A stretch of DNA of 64,000 nucleotides, from positions 71,888-135,887 of the forward strand of contig JAWCKZ010000002.1 of assembly GCA_038851325.1 (NCBI GenBank). The letters are read 5' to 3'. The notes beneath the pieces are model-generated. The model saw only the letters and a program-made list of their open reading frames with translations. It ran no database searches and was not told the DNA's origin. The position numbers and the translations under genes were made by a program. This DNA comes from Candidatus Bilamarchaeaceae archaeon. GTDB lineage: Archaea; Micrarchaeota; Micrarchaeia; Anstonellales; Bilamarchaeaceae. Positions 40,387 through 54,977 of this stretch are shown here, piece after piece; the stretch's first letter is position 1; the number at the start of each line of letters is the position of its first letter.

Positions 40387-43300
40387 CTAGCCTTTGTCCC
40401 TCTCGTTTTTCTCAAGAATCTTTATCTGCGGCTTTTTCTTCTTTTGCTGCGTCATGTATATTACTACAAGTGCTGCCAGTAGAATAGAGGCAATTATGAG
40501 ATATAGCGCCATATTCCCTTTCCCTTTTATACTATTTATGTAATCTATAAGTTTTGTTCCTTCGCTTATCGCCTTTACATAGTTTCCAGCGGCAGCAAGA
40601 GACTCAACATTTCTTTTCTTGCTTTCTATTTCAGATATCTGTTCTCCAGATAGTTCAGGTCTCCTTGCTGAAAGGTGCTCATCAATCTCATCCAATTTTC
40701 TGTAGGCATTTGTAGACAATAGCCTTAATGTTTCTTCCATCTTTTTAACTGCGGTTGGTATCTCCTTCTCAATCTTATTCTTTGCACTCCTCATGTCCCC
40801 TTTTTCCAGCAATCGTTCAGTTTCCGAGAGAAGGTTCCTGACTGAGTTTGGCTGTATTGGAAAGAGACTCTCCATACCTAGACCTTTTGCATCCTTGTGC
40901 TCTCTTTCATATTTTTGCAGGACCTTCTCAACACTCTCTCTTACTTCTTCTAGTTGTGCTCGCATTTCCTGAAGTTCTGCCTGTCTTTGGGAAATGAGAG
41001 AATCCTTCATTTTATTTAAGTTATCAAGGTCGGCGAGCACAGTAATCATATCTGTTGCCTTTTCAGTTGCGAGCAATACGTTTATGTCATCCTCAAGCTG
41101 TTTTAATGCCGATGATGCATTTTCATTGTCGTATTCTGCAAATTCTTTCTTAAGTGATTCAAACTCCTTTTTCGCTTGCCTGCTTACAGCGCTCACCTCT
41201 CCCTTTAACCAATTTAAATCGATCTTTTTCAATTCGTCAATTGCGAACCGTATCTCATTCTTCGTTGCGTTCTCTGATATAGATAGCCGTGATAACTCGC
41301 TTTCAAGAGCCTCCTTTCTTATCTGGAGTTTTCTCACTTCGGTATGATTTGCTATTCCTAGCTGATTCGCTTTTGCTATGGACTCATTCAGATCTTTTAA
41401 TTCGTTGGTCAATCTTCTCATGAGGTCGTGATATTCCTTTATAAGCGATGATTTTTCCTTCTCCAACTCAGCACATTTCTTTTTTAAATCTTCGAGCCTT
41501 TTTATTGCCTCTTCGTATCTCCCTTCGTTTAGCAATCTCTGTGTCTCTTGAGCAAGCTGGCGTATCTCAGGTTCTTCTGAATTAGCATATTTTCTTAGTT
41601 CTTCTTCTATGTACTTTGGCGGGTCTGTTATGGTGTAACTTATGTGTACTGTAGCCTCCTCCCCATTTTGAACATCATAGAGCGTTATGGTATGCGTTCC
41701 GAGGACGTTTTCCCGTGTGCATCTGTGCCTTCCGCATGATATCTGAACATTCGAGACATACCTTTCCTCTCCTATATCTGCAAACACTGGAACCTCATTC
41801 AGCTCTATGTTTGCCTTTACTTTTATGAAATAACTTACAGTGGCACTTGCACTTGATGCCGTTACGCTTGCGTCACTCTTTGTTTCTGTGTATGCATTCG
41901 GCACAGTACGTTGGTTCGTGAGCGTGTGGACGCCCTCTGAGAGCGGTCTTGAGGGCTCAAGGCCATCTATCAAGATGTTTGTTGCCCCCTCCGGAAGCGC
42001 AATCCTCGCGCCATCCACATCAAGTTTGAACACTACCTTTTCATTGATTCTTGCACTTCCGTCCCCGAGTCCGACTGCCTTTATCTCTTTACTTCTTGTT
42101 GTTGCGAGGAGAACGCTCTTCTCAAATGAGATCACTTTTCTCTCAAACGGCGCTATAGATGTAAAGAGTATCTTCATCGTTTTTCCTTGTGTGCTTACAC
42201 TAAGTATATCGGAAGTGTTAGAAACAATATTTGAATACATGAAATTAAAACTCCCCTCAAGAGGAACAGTTACCTCGATCTCTTCCCCACCATAGCTCTT
42301 TGGATTTATGATGGTAACGACGTATGTTACCTCCGTTGGAGCGTCTATGGCAACTGGCCCCATCAAAAACGACGTTTCCACAATAAGCTGATTTGCAAGA
42401 GCAGCATTTCTTTTTTCTTCGTCAGCCTCCAGGGCTTCTTCTATATCTCTATATTTTTCAGCGAGTGATTTAACGCCACAGACCGCCAGATAGTTTATAC
42501 GACCGCTTATTACAATGCCGCTCTCAGCACCTCTCATTTCATCCAGAAGTTCATCCGCATTTGCAGCAGTGAGTCTCTCATTAAGCTCCGTTCTTTTTTC
42601 TTCTACTGAGGCATATCTCAGTCGAACTGCACTCTCAATCTCTCTTTTTATCTCATTCAGCCTTTGGACAGCAGTGGGAGGCTTATTACTTTCTATGTAT
42701 CCGATTTCTGCCCGCCAACCTGCACCGCTTATCCCAGCACATCTCTCTGCATCACTGATGAGCTGTTTGAGCTCAGCAAGCAGCGTGTTGTACAACATTT
42801 CCTCCTCAGCACTTTTTCCAGAGACGCTTTTTGCGATCTCTGTTGCTTGGATGTACAACTGATACTTTGCACCCAATGTTGAGGCCCTACTTGCTTCGTC
42901 GTATTTCCTCCTTGCTTCATCTAAGATTGATTTTGCCTCGTTGCCAAGATTTTCTTTTGCTATCTTATTCTCAGCAGCCTTTATCGCTTCCTCAGCCTCG
43001 CCCCTTCTAACTTCCACTACCTTTTCAGCGTCTGCGATGATGGTGTCAGCGTTACCTATGGAAGAATAATCATCAACCGCTCTCTGCATCTCAGTGGTAG
43101 CCGTCAGGAAATAGTTATCTCCTTTGCGAGCGTAAGCACTCTCAGCGCTCTCATAGTGCCCCTCAGCGCTCTCTGTAGTTTTCTCGTATTCCTCGGCCCT
43201 CTCTGCAATTGTCCCCTCTGCGATATCGCTTCTCATCGCGCTTCCAGAGATCGGAACTGCCTCGGTTATTTTTTCTAGCTCTTCTTCTTCAATCTTGTAC

Positions 43301-44295
43301 AATCCCTCTTCTGCTTCTGATTTTTTTCTGCTTGCGTTCTCCCTAAGTTCATCGTATGTCCTTATTGCTTCCTCCTTGCTTTCATTTCCCATCTCTGCCA
43401 ATTCTGTGAATATCTTAACAACACCATCGTTTTTCTCATCTCCCCATATAAGAATCATAGTGCTATAGTATAGCGTAGAATTTGGTCCGCTCTCCAATTC
43501 AGTACTGAGATTTCGCATATTTCTTCGCACGAGATTTATCTTTCCATAAGTAGTCTCTTCGGCTCCGCTATCAACGAATGTAAATGCCCTTTCCATCTCT
43601 CTGCATTTTTCACCAGCAGTCCAGATATAGCCTCGCTCGCAAAGCCCAGTGCGTTTTAAGTCTTGGTACACCATTCGTGCATATAAGACTGTTTCCGTGG
43701 CGTTTTGTGCACTAAGCTCCAAGGCATCCAGCGCAGCATTCATCGTGTCTTTCCAATTGTTATTGTAATCCTTGACTGAACTTTCAAGCTCACCATAACC
43801 AAACAAATCCAAAAACATACCACCAGCGCATCCTGCGACACCAAAGACAATCGCGCCAGCTGCCGTACCAACTCCGGGAACAATGCTTCCAACTACAGCA
43901 CCAGCTCCTCCTCCAGCCAATGCCCCAGCAATGCATCTTCCAATGACCGAATCGGCTTCAGCTGCTCTGCGAAAACTTGAGAGCCTCTCGGTTACGACAT
44001 CGTATTTTTCGTCTGCATTTCTTTTGTTTCGTAGTGCCTCAGTGAGTTTGGAGTTTACCGCGTTGTTGTTCGTTCTTATTTTGCTTAGGTTCAGCGCCTC
44101 AAGTGTATAATGATAATCTGAATAACAAGGCGTTTTCCCATCAACCAGACAGGCGTGCTTTCTCTCCCAACCATAATCTTGCCATGGCCTATCTATTCTG
44201 TTTTCAGAATTAACAGCAGAATTAATAGCACCAACAAATCCGCAATAAAAAAGTAAAATTAACAATAAACTGGCAAAAATTTTGTTTATTTTCAC
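40387..44295 (-). CDS. Giant surface protein: signal peptide, glycine-zipper hairpin, coiled coils, Ig-like region, C-terminal TM
   Basis: CIAGALAGGGAGAVVGSIVPGVGTAAGAIVFGVAGC; heptad regions; beta-rich middle; LYLIIASILLAALVVIY-MTQQKKKK. Confidence 0.8.
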   Translation of the reverse strand: MKINKIFASLLLILLFYCGFVGAINSAVNSENRIDRPWQDYGWERKHACLVDGKTPCYSDYHYTLEALNLSKIRTNNNAVNSKLTEALRNKRNADEKYDVVTERLSSFRRAAEADSVIGRCIAGALAGGGAGAVVGSIVPGVGTAAGAIVFGVAGCAGGMFLDLFGYGELESSVKDYNNNWKDTMNAALDALELSAQNATETVLYARMVYQDLKRTGLCERGYIWTAGEKCREMERAFTFVDSGAEETTYGKINLVRRNMRNLSTELESGPNSTLYYSTMILIWGDEKNDGVVKIFTELAEMGNESKEEAIRTYDELRENASRKKSEAEEGLYKIEEEELEKITEAVPISGSAMRSDIAEGTIAERAEEYEKTTESAEGHYESAESAYARKGDNYFLTATTEMQRAVDDYSSIGNADTIIADAEKVVEVRRGEAEEAIKAAENKIAKENLGNEAKSILDEARRKYDEASRASTLGAKYQLYIQATEIAKSVSGKSAEEEMLYNTLLAELKQLISDAERCAGISGAGWRAEIGYIESNKPPTAVQRLNEIKREIESAVRLRYASVEEKRTELNERLTAANADELLDEMRGAESGIVISGRINYLAVCGVKSLAEKYRDIEEALEADEEKRNAALANQLIVETSFLMGPVAIDAPTEVTYVVTIINPKSYGGEEIEVTVPLEGSFNFMYSNIVSNTSDILSVSTQGKTMKILFTSIAPFERKVISFEKSVLLATTRSKEIKAVGLGDGSARINEKVVFKLDVDGARIALPEGATNILIDGLEPSRPLSEGVHTLTNQRTVPNAYTETKSDASVTASSASATVSYFIKVKANIELNEVPVFADIGEERYVSNVQISCGRHRCTRENVLGTHTITLYDVQNGEEATVHISYTITDPPKYIEEELRKYANSEEPEIRQLAQETQRLLNEGRYEEAIKRLEDLKKKCAELEKEKSSLIKEYHDLMRRLTNELKDLNESIAKANQLGIANHTEVRKLQIRKEALESELSRLSISENATKNEIRFAIDELKKIDLNWLKGEVSAVSRQAKKEFESLKKEFAEYDNENASSALKQLEDDINVLLATEKATDMITVLADLDNLNKMKDSLISQRQAELQEMRAQLEEVRESVEKVLQKYEREHKDAKGLGMESLFPIQPNSVRNLLSETERLLEKGDMRSAKNKIEKEIPTAVKKMEETLRLLSTNAYRKLDEIDEHLSARRPELSGEQISEIESKKRNVESLAAAGNYVKAISEGTKLIDYINSIKGKGNMALYLIIASILLAALVVIYMTQQKKKKPQIKILEKNERDKG

Positions 44296-44373
44296 ACTCT
44301 CAACCCTATTTATTGTTATGTGTAAAAAACTTTAAAAATATACGCACAAAAATCTGGGTGGCGTCTGTTGGCG

Positions 44374-47082
44374 CTATTCTTGACCACTAGTATGCGCCTG
44401 CGTCCATTCCAGATAGGACTCTGCGTTATATGGATTGTCTGTTGGGAACTGCGGTTGAACGCCATACTCGCTAAGCTTTTTCCATGATGGGCAGTAAGAG
44501 TTTTCACAATTTCTATTCAGCCAGGCGTAATAGCCCATCTTCTTAAATATCCCATACCTGTTATCATACTCTTTGCCTATCCTGCAATCAATAAACTCTA
44601 AGAAATCGTTTGCCTTGTTGTAGCAAAGGCTGCTTTTCGGTTTACATTTGCCACTCGCATCTTCTTCGCATCCTTCTGGGCATACCCCATTTTCATCAGG
44701 TTCGCATACAAGAGTCTTTGCTTTGCAGTATTCATCTACCCAACATTCAGAGGGAGAGGTGCCAGAGGGACACATATCAGGGGTATCTGTTTTGTCTTCC
44801 CATACGCCGGAATACTCATAGAGCGCAACAAAACCAATAAGAATATCTTTTTTTTGCTGGTTTCCTTCTATGCCAAACAAATCTTTCACCTTTTCACAAT
44901 CATCGTTATGCTCTTCCACCCATCTTTTTGCCCTTTTCATATCGTCTGAAAGATGAAGCGCACCCGCGCATATAGAATGGCTTGAGTTAAATGGATTATA
45001 CTCTTCTGAGCAGTAGATCTTCACTGAGGTTGGGTCTATTTTGTATCCTTCTTCATATATATCTTCATGCGGTCCGTCTGTACCATCTTCTCTGTACTCT
45101 GCTGGCCAATAGGTATACGGGGGTACCATTACCTGCATAAGCCCCATCCCACGGAAGGTATATCGAGGCGGTGTCGCTTCCGAGTTCTCAAAATAGCAGC
45201 CAGCGGTGCCTCCGCTTTCTTCATAGCGCGGGTCGTACATTTCAGGGTAGCCGAGCCTGTATGCTCTAGCGCTGCCAGGGATACACCATTTTGTTTTAGT
45301 GTTTCGTCCTTTTTCTTCCACCTCTTCTTCACGATCACCTTGATATACCTCAACATCCGTGATCTCTTTTGGAATGTCTACGCTTACCTCGAATTTACTC
45401 CTAGTTCCTGGTTTACATATGGCTGCAATTGCGCAGGAGTCAAAAGAGCTTTCACCGAGTGCAACAGCACGAAGGAGCATTGGATCAAGGTTAAACCTTG
45501 AAGCATAATATTCAAATTCAGGATAACCGGTGCATGCATAATCTGGAAGGCTACCGGGCATATGTTTTTTTAATACTGGGTAAACCACAGTTATATCCTC
45601 TGCTTCAGAAAGACAGGCATCGCATCTCCAAGGAGACTCTATTTCTGTTTGATACGTTGGCATTACTGGGTTGAGGAGATCTGTGTAACCGCCTTCTCTG
45701 GAGGTCAACAGGCTATAAAGCGCATCTGTTGAGGACTCTCCGACGTCGCATATTCCTCCTGGTACATTTGAAAAATGTATTGGTGGAATTGCTGTTCCGA
45801 TCTTTTCGACATTGGTACCCTCTCCCTTTTCAAATCCAACATAATTTTGGCAATTCCCAAACCACGCTACCTTTCGCTCATATTTCGTTGTCACGCCACA
45901 ATCTGTGCAGTGAAGCGGGTTGTTCCATGACCCGCCTTCTGTAGTATAAAGCGCTGCGCCTATAACCCCAACTCTACTCAACGCTTTTATTCCATATATA
46001 AAGAATGAGTTGTAAGCATCTGTGACAGCATTTTCGCTCCATGTGCATTTATTGTTAAGGTCGCTCCCTCCGGAGTCTATTAAGATGTATGGTATTATAG
46101 ACGGTAGACCGTATCGGTAGAGCGCATAGCTCGAGAACTGTCTTCCATCTTCTATTAATCTGTTGCCGTTGCAGTCATACTTGTTCGTTCCATTTATATA
46201 ATGCGAGTTTAGGCCATAGGCAACCAAATGGATATACCGCTTATATGCTCCTTCTCCATATCTTGCATCTATACTATTTATGACGGCATCGAGGGCAGCT
46301 TTGTCTCCGATCCTAGGCGCAACAGCAACCATGCAATATATCTTTGGTTCGTTTGGATTCCTGAAATCGTTGCAGTTTTCGTTTATCGCTATAACCTGAC
46401 CAGCAACGTTCTCGACAGCCTCTGGATCGCTGCTGTTGAACTCTAGTTCGGTAACTATTACTACTGGTCCGACTGGTCCTTCCACACTACCTTGTGTTAT
46501 TATGGGAAGACCTTCTTTTCCAAGTATTCTCGCAATCTCTCCAGCACGGTCGACGTCTATGTTTTTTCCTTCGCTGTAAAGAACATAGACTGGTAGGGTT
46601 TCCTTATCGAGCATGCAGATCGCGCGGCTAGCATCGGGCAAATCGTATGGTCTATACTCGTTTGCCGTGAGCCAATGGACAGCCATACGCAATCTGGCAT
46701 TACATAATCCGTTTGCTGTTCCAAAGTCCGCGAAACTTGGTCCTTGGCCTATCATTATTGGTCGCCAGACATACTCCTGACCTAGCTGAGAGCTTGTATT
46801 TCTGTATTCAGTTAACTTTGTTTCGTTACAGGCAGTATCGAATATGCATCTTCCACCAACAATGGAAGAGAAAAAGAATCTATAAAATGCCGGACCTCTC
46901 TCGCACACCATGCACGTGCAGTTTCCTAATGTGCACTCCCCTTCTGGAGAGAGAGCTGGTGTCCGGGACATTCGTATTAAATATTCATCGGCATAATTAT
47001 TGCCGCCAAGCGTTTTTATACATCCAAGGGTAATGAGAGCGCATATAAGAAGCGCTATCATGGTCGGTCTAGTTTTGTTCAT
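44374..47082 (-). CDS. Large Cys-rich lipoprotein-like protein with lytic transglycosylase (SLT/GH23-like) domain
   Basis: LITLGC lipobox; ASRFNLDPMLLRAVALGESSF, GMGLMQV, PFNSSHSICAGALHL, ALYEYSG. Confidence 0.75.
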   Translation of the reverse strand: MNKTRPTMIALLICALITLGCIKTLGGNNYADEYLIRMSRTPALSPEGECTLGNCTCMVCERGPAFYRFFFSSIVGGRCIFDTACNETKLTEYRNTSSQLGQEYVWRPIMIGQGPSFADFGTANGLCNARLRMAVHWLTANEYRPYDLPDASRAICMLDKETLPVYVLYSEGKNIDVDRAGEIARILGKEGLPIITQGSVEGPVGPVVIVTELEFNSSDPEAVENVAGQVIAINENCNDFRNPNEPKIYCMVAVAPRIGDKAALDAVINSIDARYGEGAYKRYIHLVAYGLNSHYINGTNKYDCNGNRLIEDGRQFSSYALYRYGLPSIIPYILIDSGGSDLNNKCTWSENAVTDAYNSFFIYGIKALSRVGVIGAALYTTEGGSWNNPLHCTDCGVTTKYERKVAWFGNCQNYVGFEKGEGTNVEKIGTAIPPIHFSNVPGGICDVGESSTDALYSLLTSREGGYTDLLNPVMPTYQTEIESPWRCDACLSEAEDITVVYPVLKKHMPGSLPDYACTGYPEFEYYASRFNLDPMLLRAVALGESSFDSCAIAAICKPGTRSKFEVSVDIPKEITDVEVYQGDREEEVEEKGRNTKTKWCIPGSARAYRLGYPEMYDPRYEESGGTAGCYFENSEATPPRYTFRGMGLMQVMVPPYTYWPAEYREDGTDGPHEDIYEEGYKIDPTSVKIYCSEEYNPFNSSHSICAGALHLSDDMKRAKRWVEEHNDDCEKVKDLFGIEGNQQKKDILIGFVALYEYSGVWEDKTDTPDMCPSGTSPSECWVDEYCKAKTLVCEPDENGVCPEGCEEDASGKCKPKSSLCYNKANDFLEFIDCRIGKEYDNRYGIFKKMGYYAWLNRNCENSYCPSWKKLSEYGVQPQFPTDNPYNAESYLEWTQAHTSGQE

Positions 47083-47166
47083 AAAACTACCCTATGTATA
47101 ATCATCAATTTATGCAATGGATCAGATAAGGGAAGAAAAAAAATAAAAAAGAGATGTACACTCAAA

Positions 47167-50100
47167 TTATGCTGCAGCCATGTAAGCCCATGTATGTTTG
47201 TTTATCTTATCTGAGTATATCGTAGCTCCGCATCTGCATCTTTCCCCTCTCATGTGCGGCGTGCCGCATCTGGCGCACCAGACATGAGAGCCTGCCTTAT
47301 GCGGTGTAGCTGCTCTCCATAGTCCATCCTTTATCTGCGTTGCCATGTCTGCAATTCTGACATCCCATGATGCGCTTACGCCATACTTTCTCTTCTCTGC
47401 GTATCTTCCGACTGCGTCCCTTATTGTCATGGATGTGGGGAACGCTGGAAGTGGCATGTGCCATGCGAACATGAATGGGTTGAACCAGCCATAGATTGGG
47501 TTTTGTGCTATCCCAAAGTGTCTTATCTCTTGATCAAATTTCATTGCAAGAGCCTCTGCAGCAACTGTTCTTCTTATTGTTGACCTCATAGCTTGTTCCT
47601 GTATTTCCCTGTCTGCAATATATGCTGCATCCCTGTTTCTCCATAGATAGCTTGCCAGTGCTTCGTCTAGCTTAAGTTCATATCTGTGCGTATAGTAGCT
47701 TGCACCTGGATTGGCTTCTCCCACCCTAGCATACGCATACACGCCTGTCCTTCTGAAGAAGAAGTCAGACGGGCTCTGTCTAAGACCACCCATTATCTCT
47801 GCCCCTGCTGTGTGGCGCTGCTCTGCGGTTGTTTGCCAGGTCTTTAGTTTTGCTAGTTTTCCATTTCCAACAATAAGGTGAAGAGGTGCACTCATCATTT
47901 CACGAAGTCTCGGCTCTGTGTATCTAAATGGTTCGTATGAGTCTGCAAGGTTGTCCCATCTAGATGGTGAACCATGCGCAGCAACCTGGAAGCTTCTGAA
48001 CATGTTCACGAACGGTTTATGTACCTTACTAGCAAGGTCCATAGGCCATCCATAGAGCGCGTAGAACCCTGCCCATTCCCCACCGGTCATTGTTGCTCTA
48101 ACATACTCCTTAATACCACCAAGAAGGTGTCCAGGTCCGTGGTGGAAAAAGTGCTCTGTGACCTGCAGCAAACCTTGCGAAGCTGTTGTTCTAACACCTC
48201 TGTCTATGCACCACTCCCAAGCATGGTGGTAAGGGAAGTGAGTTGCCACAACATTCCGATAAGCGCTTTTTTCAGCAGCACTCATATCCTTCCAATCCTC
48301 CCATTTCTTCGTGTAGAAGTTCGCGGCGAGTCTGTATGAGTGTTGTCTCAAATACTCTGTTTGTGGTACTATGTCATAAGATGCATCAAACACCGGCCCT
48401 GCACCCATAAGCGTTGTTTTTACTGCATAGGCGCCAAGGTCGGTCTTAAGATTCCTCCATGCAGTCATTAGCCATCTTGCTTTCTCGTTTTCATTCATTC
48501 CAAGCATTCTAAACGTTTGTGGGGCGATTTCCGTCACTTCTCTAACTGGCTTTATCTCAAGCGCAGTATCTCTCCAGTACTTCTGGTAGTCAGACGTACT
48601 TCTTCCATGTTGCATCACAAGTGCTGCGAATATCTTTTCCCTCTCATAGTCGTACCCGTTCTCTCCCTTCCATTTCTTTACGGCATTTATGAAAACATCC
48701 CAATCTGCACCTGGTCCCTTTTCTTTTAGTTTACTGAATTCAGCCTGAAGGTCAGGTCTTCCCTTGAACTGTATAACAACATCCTCTGGAACAAACTTTC
48801 TCCACTGCCCTTTATTGTCCCTCAGGGCAACGTCCCCATAAACCTTATCTGCTATACTAAGCGGCATTCCTTTTCTGTAGTATGCGAAGTCGCCTTCATA
48901 GAGTTGCACAAGTGGTCTTGAAGAAGTTAAGATGTCATCAAATGTTACCCCTTTCTTTAGTTCTGCCATAAATTCCTTTTTGTATTTCTGTACTATTTCT
49001 TCCCTGAAAATCTTGAGTTGTCCTACATCTGATGTACTCATGGCCTTTACACGATTTAGGTCTGGGTGATTCTCAAGCAACCCTTTGTCCTTCATTGCCT
49101 TTTCATAAAAGCCAAGCAATATCCCCACGTAGAAGTTTGCTCTTTCTCCGAATTTTCCATAGGCGTCTGGAGCAAACTGTGAATTAAACCTCTGCTCGCA
49201 GTCTTGTCTAATCTGCTCTAGCACCCACTCCCTCTTTGCGTTGTATGTCCTCTCCTCGACGCTCCACTTAGCTGAGCCTGGTCTTCTGTTGAGCTCTGCC
49301 TCTATCGATGCCTTGTAGGGTGAGATGTTAGATCTTGTGAATCTTGATTCCACCCACTGAGCTATTGCATATCCTTCTGCTGGTTTGAGCTCGCCAACCC
49401 ATGGTCTTTTCATATCAAGTTTAAACCACTCCTTCGCAGGTCCTACCTCCTTTGGTTCTCCGAAACACGCTACCCTTCCAAGTCGGTCCTCCTTCAATTT
49501 CTCAAAATCCTTTGGAACTCTTCCGATACCGTAGAGCATGTCTATTATCTGTTTTACAGAAGCAGACTCTGCCGGTCCATTTATACTCTTCGCAAGCGCT
49601 TTCTTTCCTGCATCTGTCATGAGTGCAAGGAGCATTGCTTTGTTGCTAGCTTCTATCTTTTTAAGCTCTGAGATGTTTGCTCTTATGAATTCTGGCAACT
49701 CGTTCGGGTTACTTGTAGGAATAAGACCAGTTACCCTGTTTCTTACTTCCAGGACTGTCCTCCATAGCGCCTCCTTAAGCCCTCCTTTCATATAACCATT
49801 TTCAGCATCCCACAGCAAGGTTCTAAGGACAGCTGTCTCCCAGATATCGCTGCCGCAAATAGAAGAGCGTCCAACTACTGTGTAGAATTTATCTGTTATC
49901 AATGCCTTGTTAACTGCGGCCGCTGGGACTGTTTTCTCGTGCTCTGCGAGTATCTCGCGCAGCATAAGGTATTTTATGTATCCATCTTCCTTTCCATACA
50001 TTTTGTCTATCTCGTTAAGCCTTTCGTTGAATTTAAAAAGCGAAGTATCTATGACTGCACCATGCGCTTTTGCAAGTGCTATGAGCGCAGCAAGCTTATC

Positions 50101-52005
50101 ATCAAGCGTTCCTTTACCCGTTAATATTGTTCTGAGTTCCTTTTCAATCGCTTCTATCTTTGCAGCTGCCTTGCTGTAACCGGACTTGTCGAGTATGTTA
50201 ACATCTTTGATGCACAATCCCAGCAGATCTTCCTCTGTTAGCGCGAAGTTAACACCAAGGGCTTTGTAGAGTTGTTTCATAACATACTTTATTTCATCCC
50301 TTTTGATCTCCTCTTTGATCATCTCGTACGCAGCGCTCATCTTCTCGTGTATCGCCACCTTTTGACCAAGTGGCATTCCAACAGGCGGTTTCTTAAGTTC
50401 CTTCGCAGCCCATGCCGCAAGCGTAGAGACCTTTCCTTTTTCCTCAAGCTTCTCTAGCGCTCTTGGTCCACCTACAAGTTCCATTGTTGTGCGTGCAACC
50501 CCTCTCGCTAATGTTGGGGCTTGTCTTACCATTTCCTTTGTTCCTCTAGCAAGCCATCTGCTACTTCTCACCATGGATTCGTATGAGCTCATTACAAGAG
50601 CGCTGTAAACAGTGTATCTATTTGAGCCAACGAATTTTGCAAGTCCGTTCTGCAATTTAGCATGCCACTTGCTTTTTACTCCTGGGGCCGGATGTCCTGA
50701 AAGAACATCCATTGTCTCAAGTGCTTTTTTAGTTAAAATATAATCTTTGATGTAGCCAGCCATCACTTCTTCTCTTCCACCCTTTGCTTTCATCGCAGAG
50801 AGTATCTGTTCTACTGCTTTTGCTTCGATTTCTCCGTGTGCTGACAGAGGCTTCTTGAGAACTGTGGCGAGCGCCTCTTTTTGGCCTGTCGCAGCTGCGC
50901 CATAGGCGAGCGCTTCCATTACGACGCTATCCTCCTTGCTCATCTTTGTGGCCAGTTTTCTTATTCCTGCGGCAGCCATCTGCCCAGTAGTTGTGTACCC
51001 TATCTTCTCCTTAAGCGTGCTACATGTTTTCTTTAAGAAATCTGCCGCTGCATCGCTCTTGTTTTTCATAGCCCTCTTCATCTCACCATAACCGTATGGA
51101 AGAAGAACCTGTCCACTGGCAACAAATCCTTTTGGTTGCGGCATCCTGGGCGTAGTAATGTCAAGAAGGCTCATCGGGGACTTTCCTGCAAAATACATTG
51201 AGGCAAGAAGAAGCCCTAATACCATAAATACGCCCAAGCAGAGGAAGGAATTCTCCCTAGCGGCTTTCTGAAGATGTCCTGAAACGGTGTTATATACTAT
51301 ATCAAATACACTCACAGAAACATCAGAAATCTCTACTACTTGCGGGGCTGCGGATATATAGTATCTCTGCCCGTCTATTTCAACCGCACCGCCGTTTTCT
51401 TCAGGGGGTTCGTATTCGATTAATACTCGAGCTCTTGTTCCTCTGTATACGCTCTCCGGCACTTTACATTCAGCATAATAAAGTATCGCATCTCCAGAGG
51501 CATCAGGAGTTATCAACTCTGGCTTCTGCATTTCCATGTTAGCCAACAATACTGGGATCGCTCGCGTTCCGCTATCACAACCAGGTATTGCCTGATACGT
51601 ATGCGCAATGGGGTTGTAGTAGGTAAATGCTATGGCTGCGTTCTTAACAGATTTGTAGATATACCTTTCAGGGCTTAGATAGCGCTTTGAGATGTTCATG
51701 TAGCATGCGTAGTAATCCGGATATCCAAGAGAAGCATAATCAGCGCATTCTGTTTTTATTTCGTTATACAATACATCTATCTCAACTGGTTGCATGTTAG
51801 TTGTATTCAGGATCGGAACAACAACTCCTGCCCTTATTACCTCGTTCTTTTCGCCGCTTTGCTCAACCCAGATATGTGCTCCGACTTGGACAGCACCTGT
51901 TTGCTGGTTAGTTTGCTGAGGAGTTACCTGTGCCCAAGATAGAGCGACCACTAACACAACGGCAAAAAGCCCGACAAGGGATAATATTTTTTTCATATTT
52001 ATCAA
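47167..52005 (-). CDS. Giant 1612-aa membrane protein with C-terminal zinc ribbon
   Basis: Signal peptide, TM at ~aa 254-273, long Lys/Ala-rich helical region, CARC...CRC at the C-terminus. Confidence 0.8.
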   Translation of the reverse strand: MINMKKILSLVGLFAVVLVVALSWAQVTPQQTNQQTGAVQVGAHIWVEQSGEKNEVIRAGVVVPILNTTNMQPVEIDVLYNEIKTECADYASLGYPDYYACYMNISKRYLSPERYIYKSVKNAAIAFTYYNPIAHTYQAIPGCDSGTRAIPVLLANMEMQKPELITPDASGDAILYYAECKVPESVYRGTRARVLIEYEPPEENGGAVEIDGQRYYISAAPQVVEISDVSVSVFDIVYNTVSGHLQKAARENSFLCLGVFMVLGLLLASMYFAGKSPMSLLDITTPRMPQPKGFVASGQVLLPYGYGEMKRAMKNKSDAAADFLKKTCSTLKEKIGYTTTGQMAAAGIRKLATKMSKEDSVVMEALAYGAAATGQKEALATVLKKPLSAHGEIEAKAVEQILSAMKAKGGREEVMAGYIKDYILTKKALETMDVLSGHPAPGVKSKWHAKLQNGLAKFVGSNRYTVYSALVMSSYESMVRSSRWLARGTKEMVRQAPTLARGVARTTMELVGGPRALEKLEEKGKVSTLAAWAAKELKKPPVGMPLGQKVAIHEKMSAAYEMIKEEIKRDEIKYVMKQLYKALGVNFALTEEDLLGLCIKDVNILDKSGYSKAAAKIEAIEKELRTILTGKGTLDDKLAALIALAKAHGAVIDTSLFKFNERLNEIDKMYGKEDGYIKYLMLREILAEHEKTVPAAAVNKALITDKFYTVVGRSSICGSDIWETAVLRTLLWDAENGYMKGGLKEALWRTVLEVRNRVTGLIPTSNPNELPEFIRANISELKKIEASNKAMLLALMTDAGKKALAKSINGPAESASVKQIIDMLYGIGRVPKDFEKLKEDRLGRVACFGEPKEVGPAKEWFKLDMKRPWVGELKPAEGYAIAQWVESRFTRSNISPYKASIEAELNRRPGSAKWSVEERTYNAKREWVLEQIRQDCEQRFNSQFAPDAYGKFGERANFYVGILLGFYEKAMKDKGLLENHPDLNRVKAMSTSDVGQLKIFREEIVQKYKKEFMAELKKGVTFDDILTSSRPLVQLYEGDFAYYRKGMPLSIADKVYGDVALRDNKGQWRKFVPEDVVIQFKGRPDLQAEFSKLKEKGPGADWDVFINAVKKWKGENGYDYEREKIFAALVMQHGRSTSDYQKYWRDTALEIKPVREVTEIAPQTFRMLGMNENEKARWLMTAWRNLKTDLGAYAVKTTLMGAGPVFDASYDIVPQTEYLRQHSYRLAANFYTKKWEDWKDMSAAEKSAYRNVVATHFPYHHAWEWCIDRGVRTTASQGLLQVTEHFFHHGPGHLLGGIKEYVRATMTGGEWAGFYALYGWPMDLASKVHKPFVNMFRSFQVAAHGSPSRWDNLADSYEPFRYTEPRLREMMSAPLHLIVGNGKLAKLKTWQTTAEQRHTAGAEIMGGLRQSPSDFFFRRTGVYAYARVGEANPGASYYTHRYELKLDEALASYLWRNRDAAYIADREIQEQAMRSTIRRTVAAEALAMKFDQEIRHFGIAQNPIYGWFNPFMFAWHMPLPAFPTSMTIRDAVGRYAEKRKYGVSASWDVRIADMATQIKDGLWRAATPHKAGSHVWCARCGTPHMRGERCRCGATIYSDKINKHTWAYMAAA

Positions 52006-52097: not shown

Positions 52098-53123
52098 ATG
52101 AAGAATAACCCTTTCTTACCATGGAAAATAACAGAAAATATCATAGGGATGAGGGAAGAGCGTAGACTTTTGTCAGTTTTTCTTGATAGACTTTTCAGCG
52201 GAAAGGCAGGTATTGCGGTATGCAGGGGACCACCCGGTACAGGGAAAACTACTCTTCTCAAACTTGCACAAGCACAGGGAAAAGGGGCAGGAGCCCTTTC
52301 TGCATTCGTTAAGGCAGGAAAAAGAGAAAAGGAGAGTAGTATAGTGCGGGCCCTTAAGGCGGAATTCGAGAGCGAATTATCAAAGCTTTCAGAAGGCGGC
52401 GATCTTGCGCCTTCAAAAGTGCGGTTGTTTTCGCAGGAGGGTGTTGGTACATTCAATCAGTTGTTCTCTGCTATAGGAAAAATAGTTGGTAGAATGCCCA
52501 TACTCATTATAGTAGACGACATAGATCTTGCGCAACATCCAATCGAGATTTTGAGAAGTATAGCTAAAGATACAGAAAAGTACTCAGCGGCCGTAATCGT
52601 TTCAACGACAAAGAGCATAATCCTTCCGCCAGGAGCGTTTCTCATCGAACTTAGGCCAGTTCGCGAGGAGGAATTTAGAGTTTATGTTGAAGAAAACACG
52701 AGAAAAGGTATCAGGCTCGGGGAGGAGTGCCTAAAGGCGATCTACGCAGACAGCGGTGGAAATCCAAAAGTGATACAGTTTGTGTTGTGGCAACTTTATG
52801 ACGCGGCAAAGGAGACCGATAAGGTAATAACGCGTGCGCATTACACAGCAAACATCCGGAATGCGCTTGCGCTTCTTTCACACGAGTGGTTTAGTAAGCA
52901 ATATTTTGAGGCGTCAGACGAGGAGAAGCGCATCTTAAGACGGCTTGCGCAGGTTGGAGAAGCAAGCGTGACAGAGCTTGCTATTGCGCTCAGGAAAAGG
53001 CCAGGGCCTGTTGCCACGTTATTGCTTCGGCTGGAGGCGCGTGGGGACATCTTGAAAGTGGCGCGTGGGCGATATAAGGTCTTCTGTCCTTTGTATGCGA
53101 AGTTTATTCTGGAAAGGAGTTAG
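52098..53123 (+). CDS. Archaeal AAA ATPase with C-terminal winged helix
   Basis: [22 protein letters not shown]-terminal HTH. Confidence 0.85.
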   Translation: MKNNPFLPWKITENIIGMREERRLLSVFLDRLFSGKAGIAVCRGPPGTGKTTLLKLAQAQGKGAGALSAFVKAGKREKESSIVRALKAEFESELSKLSEGGDLAPSKVRLFSQEGVGTFNQLFSAIGKIVGRMPILIIVDDIDLAQHPIEILRSIAKDTEKYSAAVIVSTTKSIILPPGAFLIELRPVREEEFRVYVEENTRKGIRLGEECLKAIYADSGGNPKVIQFVLWQLYDAAKETDKVITRAHYTANIRNALALLSHEWFSKQYFEASDEEKRILRRLAQVGEASVTELAIALRKRPGPVATLLLRLEARGDILKVARGRYKVFCPLYAKFILERS

Positions 53124-53649
53124 AAATAGATGCGTACACTCCTTCCTGCCAATCTTCCTCAAAAATTTTCATAAATTCATCAGCAAGAGTATTACGAAGG
53201 ATAAGGGAGACCTCTCTATTCTGATAAAGTGCAGAATGGCTGAGGTTGTGTGAACCAACTAGCACGTCAGTGCCATCTCGGATTATGAATTTTGTGTGAT
53301 AGGTTTTGCACCCTACCCCGAATTTCACAGGAATGCCGGCAGCCGAAAGTCTTTCCAGAACCCAAGTATTTTCTTCTTTGTAAGGGCCACGATCAACGAT
53401 TACCCTAACATCAACTCCCCTTCTCTTTGCTTCTATGAGCGCATTCGTCACCTCCGTTGAGGAGATGAAGTATACCTCAACATCGAGCGATTGCCGTGCG
53501 CCATCTATGAAGTCAAGTATTTCCCTTCCGTTTTCCGGAGATACAACAATATGCAGAGAGTAAAATGCACCGTGGGCGAAAAAACCGAGAATGAATCCAA
53601 GCGCTATGCAGAACGGAATGAGGAGGTACAGGAATTGTCTTCTGTTCAA
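53104..53649 (-). CDS. Phospholipase D/Nuc-family protein (single HKD), exported or membrane-anchored
   Basis: HTKFIIRD...VGSHN...NRE; N-terminal RRQFL plus hydrophobic helix. Confidence 0.88.
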   Translation of the reverse strand: MNRRQFLYLLIPFCIALGFILGFFAHGAFYSLHIVVSPENGREILDFIDGARQSLDVEVYFISSTEVTNALIEAKRRGVDVRVIVDRGPYKEENTWVLERLSAAGIPVKFGVGCKTYHTKFIIRDGTDVLVGSHNLSHSALYQNREVSLILRNTLADEFMKIFEEDWQEGVYASISNSFPE

Positions 53650-54977
53650 AGGACTACCTCCTTCAGTTCTCTTTCAATCTCGCCGTTATCTTTCAGGCTG
53701 TACGTAATGTGAAGAACAGGGGTATCTATGGTTATAACCCGCTTGAGATTCACCGGTGTTCCTGAAACAACAATCTCAGCCCCGCTTCTTCTTATGGTTT
53801 CTTCGAGGTCTTTTAATTGTTCACCGTAATATCCCATTGCAGGAAGAACATCTTTCAGATGCGTGTACTTCTCAAAGGTTTCCTTTATGCTTCCCACTGC
53901 GTGATCCTTTGGGCTTATTATAGCAGCACCATGCTCTTTTGCGTACTTGTACGCTGCACCAAAACCCATCTCACCGTGCGTCACCGTCGGTCCGTCTTCC
54001 ACCGCGATGACCTTCTTTCCTGAGATATCGATTTCCTCGTCAGGAGTAAGCACAAGCTCGGTTTGCACAATTCGTGCATTTGGATTCGCTTTCTCTGCAT
54101 TTTCCATTATCGATTTTGCTCCTTCGGGATTTTCGCTGGCTTTGTTGACGACGAGCACATCCGCCATCCTGAAATTCGTTTCGCCAGGATAGTACTTCAT
54201 CTCATGTCCTGCACGAAGCGCATCTGCGACTACAAAAAGTAAATCTGGCCTATAAAACGGGAAATCGTTGTTTCCTCCATCCCAAATGATGATATCTGCT
54301 TCTTTTTCAGCCTTACGAAGAATTTTTTCGTAGTCGATACCGGCGTAAACAACAACACCATTGCTTATATGCGGCTCGTACTCCTCGCGCTCCTCGATAG
54401 TGCACTGATGCCTGTCAAGGTCCTCGAGCCTTGCAAATCGCTGGACTCTTTGCTTTGCAAGGTCGCCGTAGGGCATTGGATGACGAACAACGACAACCCG
54501 CTTTCCCATTCCTTTCAGCGTGGTTGCTATCTTTTTTGTGAGTGGACTTTTTCCGCTACCGGTCCGAACTGCGCATACTGCTATCACGGGCTTATTGCTT
54601 TTCAGCATCGTATCGTTTGGACCAAGGAGCACAAATGATGCACCACTTGCTTGCACACGCGATGCAAGGTGCATTACGTGCTCGTGCGAGACGTCGGAGT
54701 ATGAAAAATACACCTCATCAACTTTATACTCATCAATCAAACTTTCGAGTTCTTTTTCATCGTAAATCTCGATGCCGTTAGGATAAAATCGACCTGAAAG
54801 ACTCTGTGGATACTTCCTTTCAGCAATGTTTGGTATCTGTGTAGCAGTGAATCCAACTACGTTATATCTCTTGTTTTTTCTAAAGAAAACATTGAAGTTA
54901 TGAAAATCGCGTCCTGCGGCTCCAAGTATAAGAACATTCCTTCTTCTAATGCGCTTGGTTGCTTGCTCCTTAGCCAT
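53646..54977 (-). CDS. COG2403-type P-loop protein (cDPG-synthetase/arginine synthetase ArcE-like)
   Basis: ILGAAGRDFHNFN, AVRTGSGKS, RHPMPYG, TIEEREEYEPH, WDGGNND, VEDGPT, LPAMGY. Confidence 0.8.
   Translation of the reverse strand: MAKEQATKRIRRRNVLILGAAGRDFHNFNVFFRKNKRYNVVGFTATQIPNIAERKYPQSLSGRFYPNGIEIYDEKELESLIDEYKVDEVYFSYSDVSHEHVMHLASRVQASGASFVLLGPNDTMLKSNKPVIAVCAVRTGSGKSPLTKKIATTLKGMGKRVVVVRHPMPYGDLAKQRVQRFARLEDLDRHQCTIEEREEYEPHISNGVVVYAGIDYEKILRKAEKEADIIIWDGGNNDFPFYRPDLLFVVADALRAGHEMKYYPGETNFRMADVLVVNKASENPEGAKSIMENAEKANPNARIVQTELVLTPDEEIDISGKKVIAVEDGPTVTHGEMGFGAAYKYAKEHGAAIISPKDHAVGSIKETFEKYTHLKDVLPAMGYYGEQLKDLEETIRRSGAEIVVSGTPVNLKRVITIDTPVLHITYSLKDNGEIERELKEVVL

Follow-up and report, generated by a model that had tools for sequence, protein, structure and literature searches.

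It is still a question by what means archaea of the DPANN group attach themselves to other cells and trade material with them; genetically, no such apparatus has been identified. Does the locus described here encode one? It lies in a stretch of 64,000 nucleotides (nt), below called the window, from the genome of a Candidatus Bilamarchaeaceae archaeon of the Micrarchaeota (GenBank assembly GCA_038851325.1, contig JAWCKZ010000002.1, positions 71,888 to 135,887 of the forward strand; the assembly, here G000, is 0.9 Mb long and 91% complete). Three giant genes, which we call P1, P2 and P3, follow one another there, and a first-pass annotation made from the sequence alone had taken all three together for an undescribed apparatus of host contact or injection. 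The answer reached here is narrower. P1 and P2 are a conserved pair, and we see an even chance that they work together as accessory subunits of an envelope system that is specific to Micrarchaeota lineages and has a paralogous second version. P3 is a neighbour and not a conserved member of this module.

The gene layout given by the first-pass annotation has proved accurate. The open reading frames (ORFs) of 1612, 902 and 1302 amino acids (aa) are exact and co-oriented, and the gaps, said to be under 90 bp, measure 84 nt (P1-P2) and 78 nt (P2-P3). All three proteins carry export signals as described, in the form of signal segments in P1 and P3 and a lipobox in P2. The portrayal of P1 as a single-pass protein with a very large internal domain, of P2 as a lipoprotein-like protein with an SLT domain, and of an AAA ATPase gene (divergent) and an exported PLD-type nuclease gene nearby has held as well. 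None of the three is a chance ORF, since each has full-length homologues in related genomes; those of P1 are labelled Candidatus Micrarchaeota in their sources. The real start of P1 is probably the ATG at residue 4 (window position 51996), because the Atlas record starts there and is preceded, some 35 nt upstream, by a TATA-like box. Coordinates of all features are collected in Table 1.

How far is this arrangement retained among relatives? We inspected gene by gene 15 loci from 14 related genomes, with their ORFs clustered; in 13 of these genomes P2 is the next gene after P1. Profile searches were then extended to a phylum sample of 151 genomes, G000 included, of which 57 gave a match to the profile of P1 and 55 to that of P2. 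Both genes are present in families f1, f2, f6-f10, f12, f18, f19 and f21; they occur in all 26 other f1 genomes, and few genomes of f18, f19, f21 or the order's remaining families lack them. In the two largest families sampled, f13 and f14, neither was found (0/46 and 0/25). Of the 53 genomes with both genes, 47 have them on a shared contig and strand with P2 as the downstream one, as counted by eye from the tables. The genes that adjoin P2 in many relatives were read from the sequences as Topo VI A and B, and were discounted as components of the system.

The candidate membrane partners of this pair become visible only outside the window's own family. There, five genomes carry a tandem run of six paralogous genes for polytopic membrane proteins ahead of P1; this array adjoins P1 directly in G032, G037 and G029, and in G031 and G035 only LeuRS lies between. 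The family of six-gene arrays is present in 135 of the 151 genomes, a count that includes the unpublished G063. G000 itself has two such arrays. The P1-adjacent arrays of relatives are position-by-position orthologues of the array on contig C6 of G000 (16/16 best hits), whereas a second array type is orthologous to the array on contig C11 (12/12 best hits). In the window's family the P1-P2 pair became separated from its array. A solitary thirteenth member of the six-paralog family stands at G000:C1:111496-112506 (E 7.4e-30 to the array profile).

The second array type has companions of its own. It is followed by a Cys-rich lipoprotein of 1131-1640 aa and then by a P1-like bitopic protein, and this layout is co-oriented in six of the seven loci fetched, the seventh being interrupted by a contig end; in six genomes other than G000 the three parts are contiguous. 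The P1-like protein carries the module of P1 that consists of the transmembrane (TM) helix and the tail behind it, and in G000 both companions are matched by the profiles of the window proteins (Table 1). The trio of array, lipoprotein and bitopic protein therefore exists twice, and nothing speaks more strongly for a joint function of P1 and P2 with an array. Upstream of the C11 system of G000 (C11:4159-17263) we noted a 583-aa protein and a tyrosine integrase. The array proteins themselves have no Pfam match, and the best match of their profile in PDB is unrelated (E 0.64). In the ESM Atlas they gave a weak lead, a cluster with 23% of CedA1-bearing members (score 0.88, rank 18).

What could P2 do in such a system? 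Its N-terminal hydrophobic segment (residues 8-26) has a lipobox made of a small residue and a cysteine, and the protein is predicted to be lipid-anchored and to face outward. In the AlphaFold 2 model, based on 29 homologues (pLDDT 81.3, pTM 0.83), residues ~60-480 form eight beta-alpha units, the barrel fold of clan GH-A, and this barrel is the most conserved part of P2. The best Foldseek matches in PDB also belong to clan GH-A: GH53 first (6gpa_B, E 2.1e-6, TMt 0.55), then GH26, PslG, GH5 and GH113. Directly behind strand 207-210 lies Glu212, kept in 26/29 homologues; the residue behind strand 328-334 is D336, with D in 13/29 and E in 6/29 homologues, both positions being assigned from DSSP strands and not from superposition. 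In clan GH-A the acid/base after strand 4 and the nucleophile after strand 7 are both Glu. From the clan members compared (GH26 2bv9 lichenase/mannanase, GH53 6gpa galactanase, GH5, GH10, GH113 and PslG) the P2 barrel differs by its Asp behind strand 7, by many conserved cysteines (P2 has 39 Cys in all), and by the lack of a family match: no Pfam or NCBIfam glycosidase family was found for P2 or its 29 homologues at E <= 0.01.

The second glycan-hydrolase-type domain of P2 is of SLT/GH23 type. Its identity is weak on the window protein alone (PF01464 at E 0.0082 and 16.1 bits, under the cut-off of 21.3) and solid for the family, since all P2 homologues align as one family and PF01464 is found in 11/29 of them at E <= 0.01 (best 2.1e-12 with 47.1 bits, another with 24.5 bits). 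The domain is missing from 4/29 sequences; among the 25 that bear it, E544 is kept in 25, S545 in 21, G647 in 24 and Q650 in 25. We take E544-S545 to be the catalytic E-S motif, and residues 647-650 the G-L-M-Q motif, of SLT/GH23. The top three PDB profile matches of P2 are EtgA and two MltC entries, all weak (E 0.2-1). In the model the SLT region is helical with a beta insert, and the fold-search matches of the 902-aa model all fell on the barrel. The homologue of G026 (L055:613-3711, 1032 aa) has an SLT domain (E 2.1e-12) together with a C-terminal Peptidase_M23 domain (E 4.2e-25). Most likely, then, the SLT domain of P2 is catalytically intact and serves for cutting walls of murein type.

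P1 has a different architecture. The hydropathy scan gives an N-terminal hydrophobic segment at residues 7-25 and a TM helix at 254-272, with about 1,340 aa behind it. The peak of conservation is the TM helix with about 20 residues behind it, the sole part that matches in distant genomes; A268, G274, P277, D282, P286 and P289 are invariant there in the alignment, and the same part matches G000:C10:587-3496 in the second system. The signal peptide, the cysteines of extracellular type and the C-terminal four-Cys ribbon, which fits a cytoplasmic location, suggest that the ectodomain lies outside and the large domain inside. A likeness of the motif behind the TM helix to the C-terminal tails of the array proteins was an impression only; when the P1 N-terminal and TM regions were compared with the six-paralog alignment by hhalign, the E values of 0.18 and 0.52 lent it no support.

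Does the large inner domain belong to a known family? The AlphaFold 2 model of residues 413-1612 is of good quality (pLDDT 85.6, pTM 0.87). Foldseek of this 1,200-aa model against PDB found no fold match (best E 0.077, TM < 0.1), and the viral structure library BFVD gave no meaningful one (best E 1.6e-3, TM 0.06); the model was searched undivided, which leaves room for a known fold in one single domain. P1 has no family in Pfam or NCBIfam and no usable match in the ESM Atlas. Sequence and profile searches of PDB returned chance-level rows plus a weak match of the ribbon to the bL32 type, and neither Walker A nor HExxH motif was found in the alignment. The family is limited in size: with the single 1,200-aa sequence as a query, 84 cluster representatives were found at E <= 1e-3 and 63 at E <= 1e-10 out of 1.84 billion. 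Full-length members have 1,400-2,000 aa. The inner domain would be a new fold family.

Taken together, these features allow the following model. The membrane core of each system would be formed by its six paralogous polytopic proteins, and the core that belongs to the P1-P2 system would here be the C6 array. P2 would be exported and tethered by its lipid to the outer face of the membrane, bearing the GH-A-type barrel and the SLT/GH23 module, and its most likely substrate is an amino-sugar polymer with beta-1,4 linkages. A polymer of murein type is suggested by the SLT domain and, in one homologue, by M23. To our knowledge, murein synthesis is not expected in these archaea, and for this reason the target would be the wall of another cell or its debris. 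P1, with a small disulfide-type ectodomain outside and a helical platform of about 1,340 aa and a zinc ribbon inside, would associate with these partners and probably serves to connect the enzyme outside, and the membrane complex of six subunits, with some process in the cytoplasm. The role of the pair would thus parallel that of the specialised lytic transglycosylases of bacterial envelope-spanning machines. P3 would be a separate surface protein that became adjacent by chance in this genus.

The same enzymes could serve nutrition. P2 would then digest bacterial wall debris or other glycans for uptake, with P1 as a sensor or transducer and no contact machine at all. The murein-directed SLT and M23 domains of the P2 family agree with this, as do the resemblance of the GH-A barrel to endo-glycanases, the anchored PLD/NucT-type nuclease encoded nearby, which fits polymer uptake, and the receptor-like layout of P1 (ectodomain, TM helix, large inner domain). 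Murein degradation by other DPANN lineages is also proposed in the available text of PMC9723730 and PMC8204110. Such scavenging, however, would leave unexplained the twice-duplicated tight association with six-subunit arrays. Apart from the zinc ribbon, no domain for signalling, kinase activity or DNA binding can be recognised in P1, and the conserved neighbourhood contains no gene for a sugar or muropeptide transporter. We regard a purely nutritional role as rather unlikely.

Several observations weigh against a dedicated envelope system built on P1 and P2. In the window's family the six-gene array is unlinked to the pair, and the link rests on other families. P1 and P2 are on separate contigs in 6 of the 53 genomes with both (G001, G051, G024, G013, G082 and G040); several of these assemblies are fragmented, but in G001 and G051 the genes look genuinely separated. 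An acid (D/E) behind strand 7 is present in just 19/29 P2 homologues, and three short homologues have no SLT domain, from which it follows that hydrolysis may not be the conserved core function of P2. The pair is surrounded by housekeeping genes such as Topo VI and LeuRS. G000 has considerable biosynthetic content, including purine-synthesis genes, RuBisCO and PEP carboxylase, and the available text of PMC12892359 considers that related orders are possibly less dependent on hosts. The spacers between the three genes, finally, suggest separate transcription. Both open with a T run immediately behind the preceding stop codon and have a TATA-like A/T-rich box 30-45 nt ahead of the next start, and the T runs together with these boxes may represent terminators and promoters, which suggests that P1, P2 and P3 are transcribed separately. 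A scan for sigma-70-type promoters and terminators found 13 against 20.6 expected, which is uninformative for an archaeon. The sequencing runs that contain the sequence are four DNA runs of a single hot-springs metagenome study, with no RNA run listed.

Because of the housekeeping neighbours, the biosynthetic genes and the proposal of PMC12892359, a nutritional role or a role in the cell's own envelope is possible. In the latter case the pair and the arrays would build, remodel or divide the envelope of the archaeon itself, P2 trimming an endogenous surface glycan and P1 linking the envelope to the cytoplasm. It is in favour of such housekeeping that P1 and P2 are single-copy, vertically conserved and located among genes such as Topo VI, LeuRS, RuBisCO and AspRS, and that the wide distribution of the arrays is typical of a core function. 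In addition, no S_layer_N (PF05123) protein was found in G000 (91% complete) at E <= 0.1; according to the available part of a preprint, the S-layer protein of Ca. Micrarchaeum harzensis has this domain, and so do 38 of the hits that BLAST found for it in 51 Micrarchaeota genomes. Yet SLT and M23 are murein-directed domains, for which these archaea should have no endogenous substrate, and P1 and P2 were not found in f13 and f14 although arrays are present there. The pair is therefore dispensable for the core role of the arrays. We consider it unlikely that own-envelope maintenance is the function of P1 and P2, and return to the pair as part of a dedicated envelope system as the preferred reading.

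Is P3 a third component of this system? Its segments are a signal (residues 6-24), a Gly/Ala-rich hydrophobic stretch (119-166), long helical regions with coiled coils around a central beta-rich region, and a C-terminal TM helix (1262-1280) with a basic tail. With such an outline, and with P1, P2 and P3 co-oriented and separated by short gaps in G000, G001 and probably G003, one may imagine a single host-attachment or injection apparatus in which P3 is a membrane-inserting coiled-coil spike with a hairpin that engages the host membrane. The distribution of P3 speaks against it. A homologue was found in 24 of 41 genomes, 21 of these 24 in f1 and outside f1 only in f9, and P3 is not found in most families that have P1 and P2. 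It adjoins P2 in just 3 of the 24 genomes (G000, G001, and G003 across a contig end), adjacency in two fragmented genomes, G002 and G006, not being excludable. In the remaining genomes it is found on a different contig or at a distance of about 150 kb (G032), with housekeeping genes around it such as a helicase, and a paralogue lies beside PolD DP2. Each of the three genes has a promoter-like box of its own. In G005 (L062:9821-11602) the place of P2 next to P3 is taken by a 593-aa protein with a weak match of TrwB/VirD4 type (PF10412, E 0.0011, under the cut-off).

The hydrophobic stretch itself, described by the first-pass annotation as a hairpin near the tip of P3, is present, but it is not conserved. 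The closest orthologues (G003, G005) lack it, as do most family members examined: among 15, only G004 has a comparable Gly/Ala-rich stretch, and a hydrophobic segment at about residues 100-130 is seen in the members of G012 and G023. P3 thus has no conserved fusion segment of the kind found in membrane-fusion-type spikes. A single apparatus of all three proteins is for these reasons very improbable. The idea of an undescribed envelope system, and the linkage across Micrarchaeota that it implied, have consequently survived for P1 and P2 and failed for P3, which is unlinked in most relatives.

The first-pass annotation had also allowed for a match of these proteins to known families such as S-layer proteins; neither S_layer_N (PF05123) nor another S-layer domain was found in P3 or in 20 family members, and a match to DUF6861 is weak (E 7e-4, under the cut-off). 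SlaB of Sulfolobales and tetrabrachion of Staphylothermus are membrane-anchored stalk proteins of S-layers. P3 is like them in its signal peptide, coiled coils, beta-rich region and C-terminal TM helix with a basic tail, and unlike them in that neither its sequence nor its profile resembles an S-layer family. The available text of a paper on the Micrarchaeota S-layer raises the possibility of a second stalk protein with a TM anchor. The convergent trio of genes next to P3 (Table 1) is kept beside it in all four genus genomes in which the region is assembled.

Table 1. Features of the P1-P2-P3 locus (window coordinates) and related loci elsewhere in G000 (contig coordinates)
Feature	Coordinates	Strand	Description
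P1	47167..52005	-	1612 aa, TTG start; from ORF list and translation; bitopic membrane protein
P1 ectodomain (residues 26-253, ~230 aa)	51247..51930	-	Predicted extracellular; Cys143 and Cys180 invariant in alignment
P1 TM helix (254-272) and tail motif	51130..51246	-	Most conserved stretch; common to P1-like paralogue
P1 inner domain (residues 293-1612)	47170..51129	-	Mostly helical, no fold match
P1 C-terminal zinc ribbon (C1577, C1580, C1590, C1592)	47230..47277	-	Each Cys kept in at least 85% of 51 sequences
P1-P2 spacer	47083..47166	-	Oligo-T run straight after P1 stop, then A/T-rich box before P2 start
P2	44374..47082	-	902 aa, ATG start; predicted surface lipoprotein, two glycan-hydrolase-type domains
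P2 signal peptide and lipobox (Gly20-Cys21)	47020..47082	-	G20 in 27/29, C21 in 28/29 homologues
P2 (beta/alpha)8 barrel, clan GH-A type (~residues 60-480)	45643..46905	-	Glu212 behind strand 4, Asp336 behind strand 7
P2 SLT/GH23 domain, predicted lysozyme-like (~residues 510-760), split by beta-rich insert	44803..45555	-	Glu544-Ser545; G-L-M-Q 647-650
P2 Cys-rich C-terminal region	44377..44802	-	Conserved Cys columns in alignments
P2-P3 spacer	44296..44373	-	Short T run and TATA-like box ahead of P3 start
P3	40387..44295	-	1302 aa, GVG-type GTG start; coiled-coil surface protein
P3 Gly/Ala-rich hydrophobic stretch (residues 119-166)	43798..43941	-	Lineage-variable
Convergent trio at P3	37748-40372	+	Methyltransferase, exported 304-aa protein (22 Cys, 13 N-glycosylation sequons), HprK-like kinase
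AAA/STAND-like ATPase, 341 aa, divergent	52098..53123	+	AAA_16 E 2.7e-9, AAA_22 E 6.1e-9; winged-helix C-terminus possible
PLD/NucT-like nuclease, 181 aa, membrane-anchored	53104..53649	-	PLDc_2 E 4.4e-27, NucT models E 6.5e-11, TM helix 6-24
443-aa P-loop protein	53646-54977	-	Cyclic 2,3-diphosphoglycerate synthetase-related (PDB 9sxb, E 3.3e-9)
G000 array 1	C6:9005-16658		Six-gene array; contig other than the window's
G000 array 2	C11:7988-15452		Six-gene array
G000 second-system lipoprotein	C11:4159-7986		1275 aa, 49 Cys, lipobox; P2 profile E 4.6e-10
G000 P1-like protein	C10:587-3496		969 aa, bitopic, at contig start; P1 profile E 3.8e-8

The genes on the other side of P1 are less constant companions. 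The divergent AAA gene is found beside P1 in 5/14 other genomes and is kept only within the window's own family; as a STAND/Orc-like ATPase it was ruled out as a secretion motor. The PLD/NucT-like gene, which overlaps the 3' end of the AAA gene, is near P1 in 4/14 other genomes, and its product may scavenge extracellular nucleic acid. The 443-aa neighbour was likewise ruled out as a secretion ATPase, being a relative of cyclic 2,3-diphosphoglycerate synthetase, which one would not expect to meet in so small a DPANN genome of hot-spring origin.

Can the system be assigned to a known class of envelope-spanning machines? The first-pass annotation had suggested looking for genes like VirB4 and VirB6 or pilus genes beside homologous loci. 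What was found beside P1 in five genomes is the polytopic six-gene array, while the P1-P2-P3 cluster has no gene for a VirB4-type ATPase or a pilin. A VirB4-family ATPase encoded with the system, as in type IV secretion systems (T4SS), Ced and Ted, is thus lacking in the window region. Two HerA/VirB4-like ATPases (DUF87/AAA_10) exist elsewhere in G000, at C1:115212-116645 and C5:15609-17189, unlinked to P1-P2 or to the arrays. The C5 copy also matches P-loop_TraG (E 8.2e-11). Each of these two genes is flanked by genes for a 260-289-aa protein and a 236-250-aa coiled-coil protein (C1:114429-117359; C5:14740-18422), and their number, two copies, is the same as that of the arrays, the lipoproteins and the P1-type proteins.

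Among the components of known machines, the closest counterparts of P2 are VirB1 of T4SS and EtgA of the type III secretion system, with which it shares a predicted membrane-tethered SLT/GH23 domain with a Glu-Ser motif, encoded beside the membrane components of a multi-subunit system; EtgA is also the top, if weak, PDB profile match of P2 (E 0.2). Conjugation hydrolases of Gram-positive bacteria (PrgK, TraG of pIP501) combine SLT with a peptidase domain, as does the one P2 homologue that pairs SLT with M23. P2 differs from all of these by its archaeal host without murein and by the addition of a GH-A barrel, a lipobox anchor and about 39 Cys. Moreover, the cluster lacks VirB4, VirD4 and pilin, and P1 has no counterpart in secretion systems. 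The resemblance to hydrolases of VirB1, EtgA and PrgK type is one of logic and not of family. The array proteins, which are neighbours of the pair in other genomes, are similar to VirB6/TrbL and to CedA-type channel subunits of the Ced/Ted DNA import systems in being polytopic, tandem and located beside a wall hydrolase; unlike VirB6/TrbL, they have no PF04610 match, and none was found in G000 at E <= 10.

On the most far-reaching reading, P1, P2 and the array would constitute a trans-envelope contact machine peculiar to Micrarchaeota, in two paralogous copies, distantly derived from T4SS/Ced-like systems or arisen independently, in which the six paralogs form a hetero-oligomeric channel platform, P2 makes a hole in the murein wall of a bacterial partner and the large cytoplasmic domain of P1, with its zinc ribbon, gates or loads the cargo. 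We think this rather unlikely. Within the locus, solely the wall-cutting domains hint at host attachment or injection.

It can also be asked whether the locus is cellular at all, because giant proteins and SLT-type hydrolases are common in conjugative elements and phages, and a tyrosine integrase (Phage_integrase, E 2.2e-45) is located beside the second array (G000:C11:17390-18199). A remnant of an integrated plasmid or virus, such as a conjugative element, is hardly credible here. GC content is flat across the P1-P2-P3 region, a whole order shares the gene surroundings on the chromosome and the phyletic pattern, Pfam and NCBIfam searches found no relaxase, VirB4 or capsid genes in the window region, and nothing in the viral structure library matches the P1 model in a meaningful way.

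The nearest precedents among DPANN archaea are the large exported SLT proteins of Woesearchaeota and Pacearchaeota, which the available text of PMC8204110 (fam00969) and PMC9723730 (GH23) reads as tools for binding or degrading bacterial walls. As described there, they share with P2 lytic transglycosylase domains of murein type on large exported proteins; they reach up to 3,000 aa, belong to other phyla and were directly found by domain searches, a distinction drawn from their description only. The SLT domain of P2, by comparison, is diverged and split; it shares its chain with a barrel of glycosidase type, and the protein has P1 as its partner gene product. In the literature searched, including the available text of PMC8204110, PMC5498576, PMC8784108 and PMC12892359, neither P1 nor its pairing with P2 nor any SLT protein of Micrarchaeota was found described, although supplementary tables may list them. 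The pair with its arrays matches no described system. New here are the phylum-wide counts of co-occurrence and adjacency, the orthology of the P1-linked arrays to the C6 array, the duplicated second system, the M23-bearing homologue and the exclusion of P3.

For the question of how DPANN archaea deal with other cells, the locus provides a defined parts list: a putative wall-cutting lipoprotein, a bitopic partner with what would be a new fold, and two linked six-subunit arrays. Murein-directed domains in an archaeon without murein suggest that a part of the Micrarchaeota deals with bacteria. The cultivated Micrarchaeota so far all have archaeal hosts, according to the available text of the literature. 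If P1, P2 and their array were indeed a contact machine, bacteria, and not other archaea, would be what this lineage physically depends on or preys upon.

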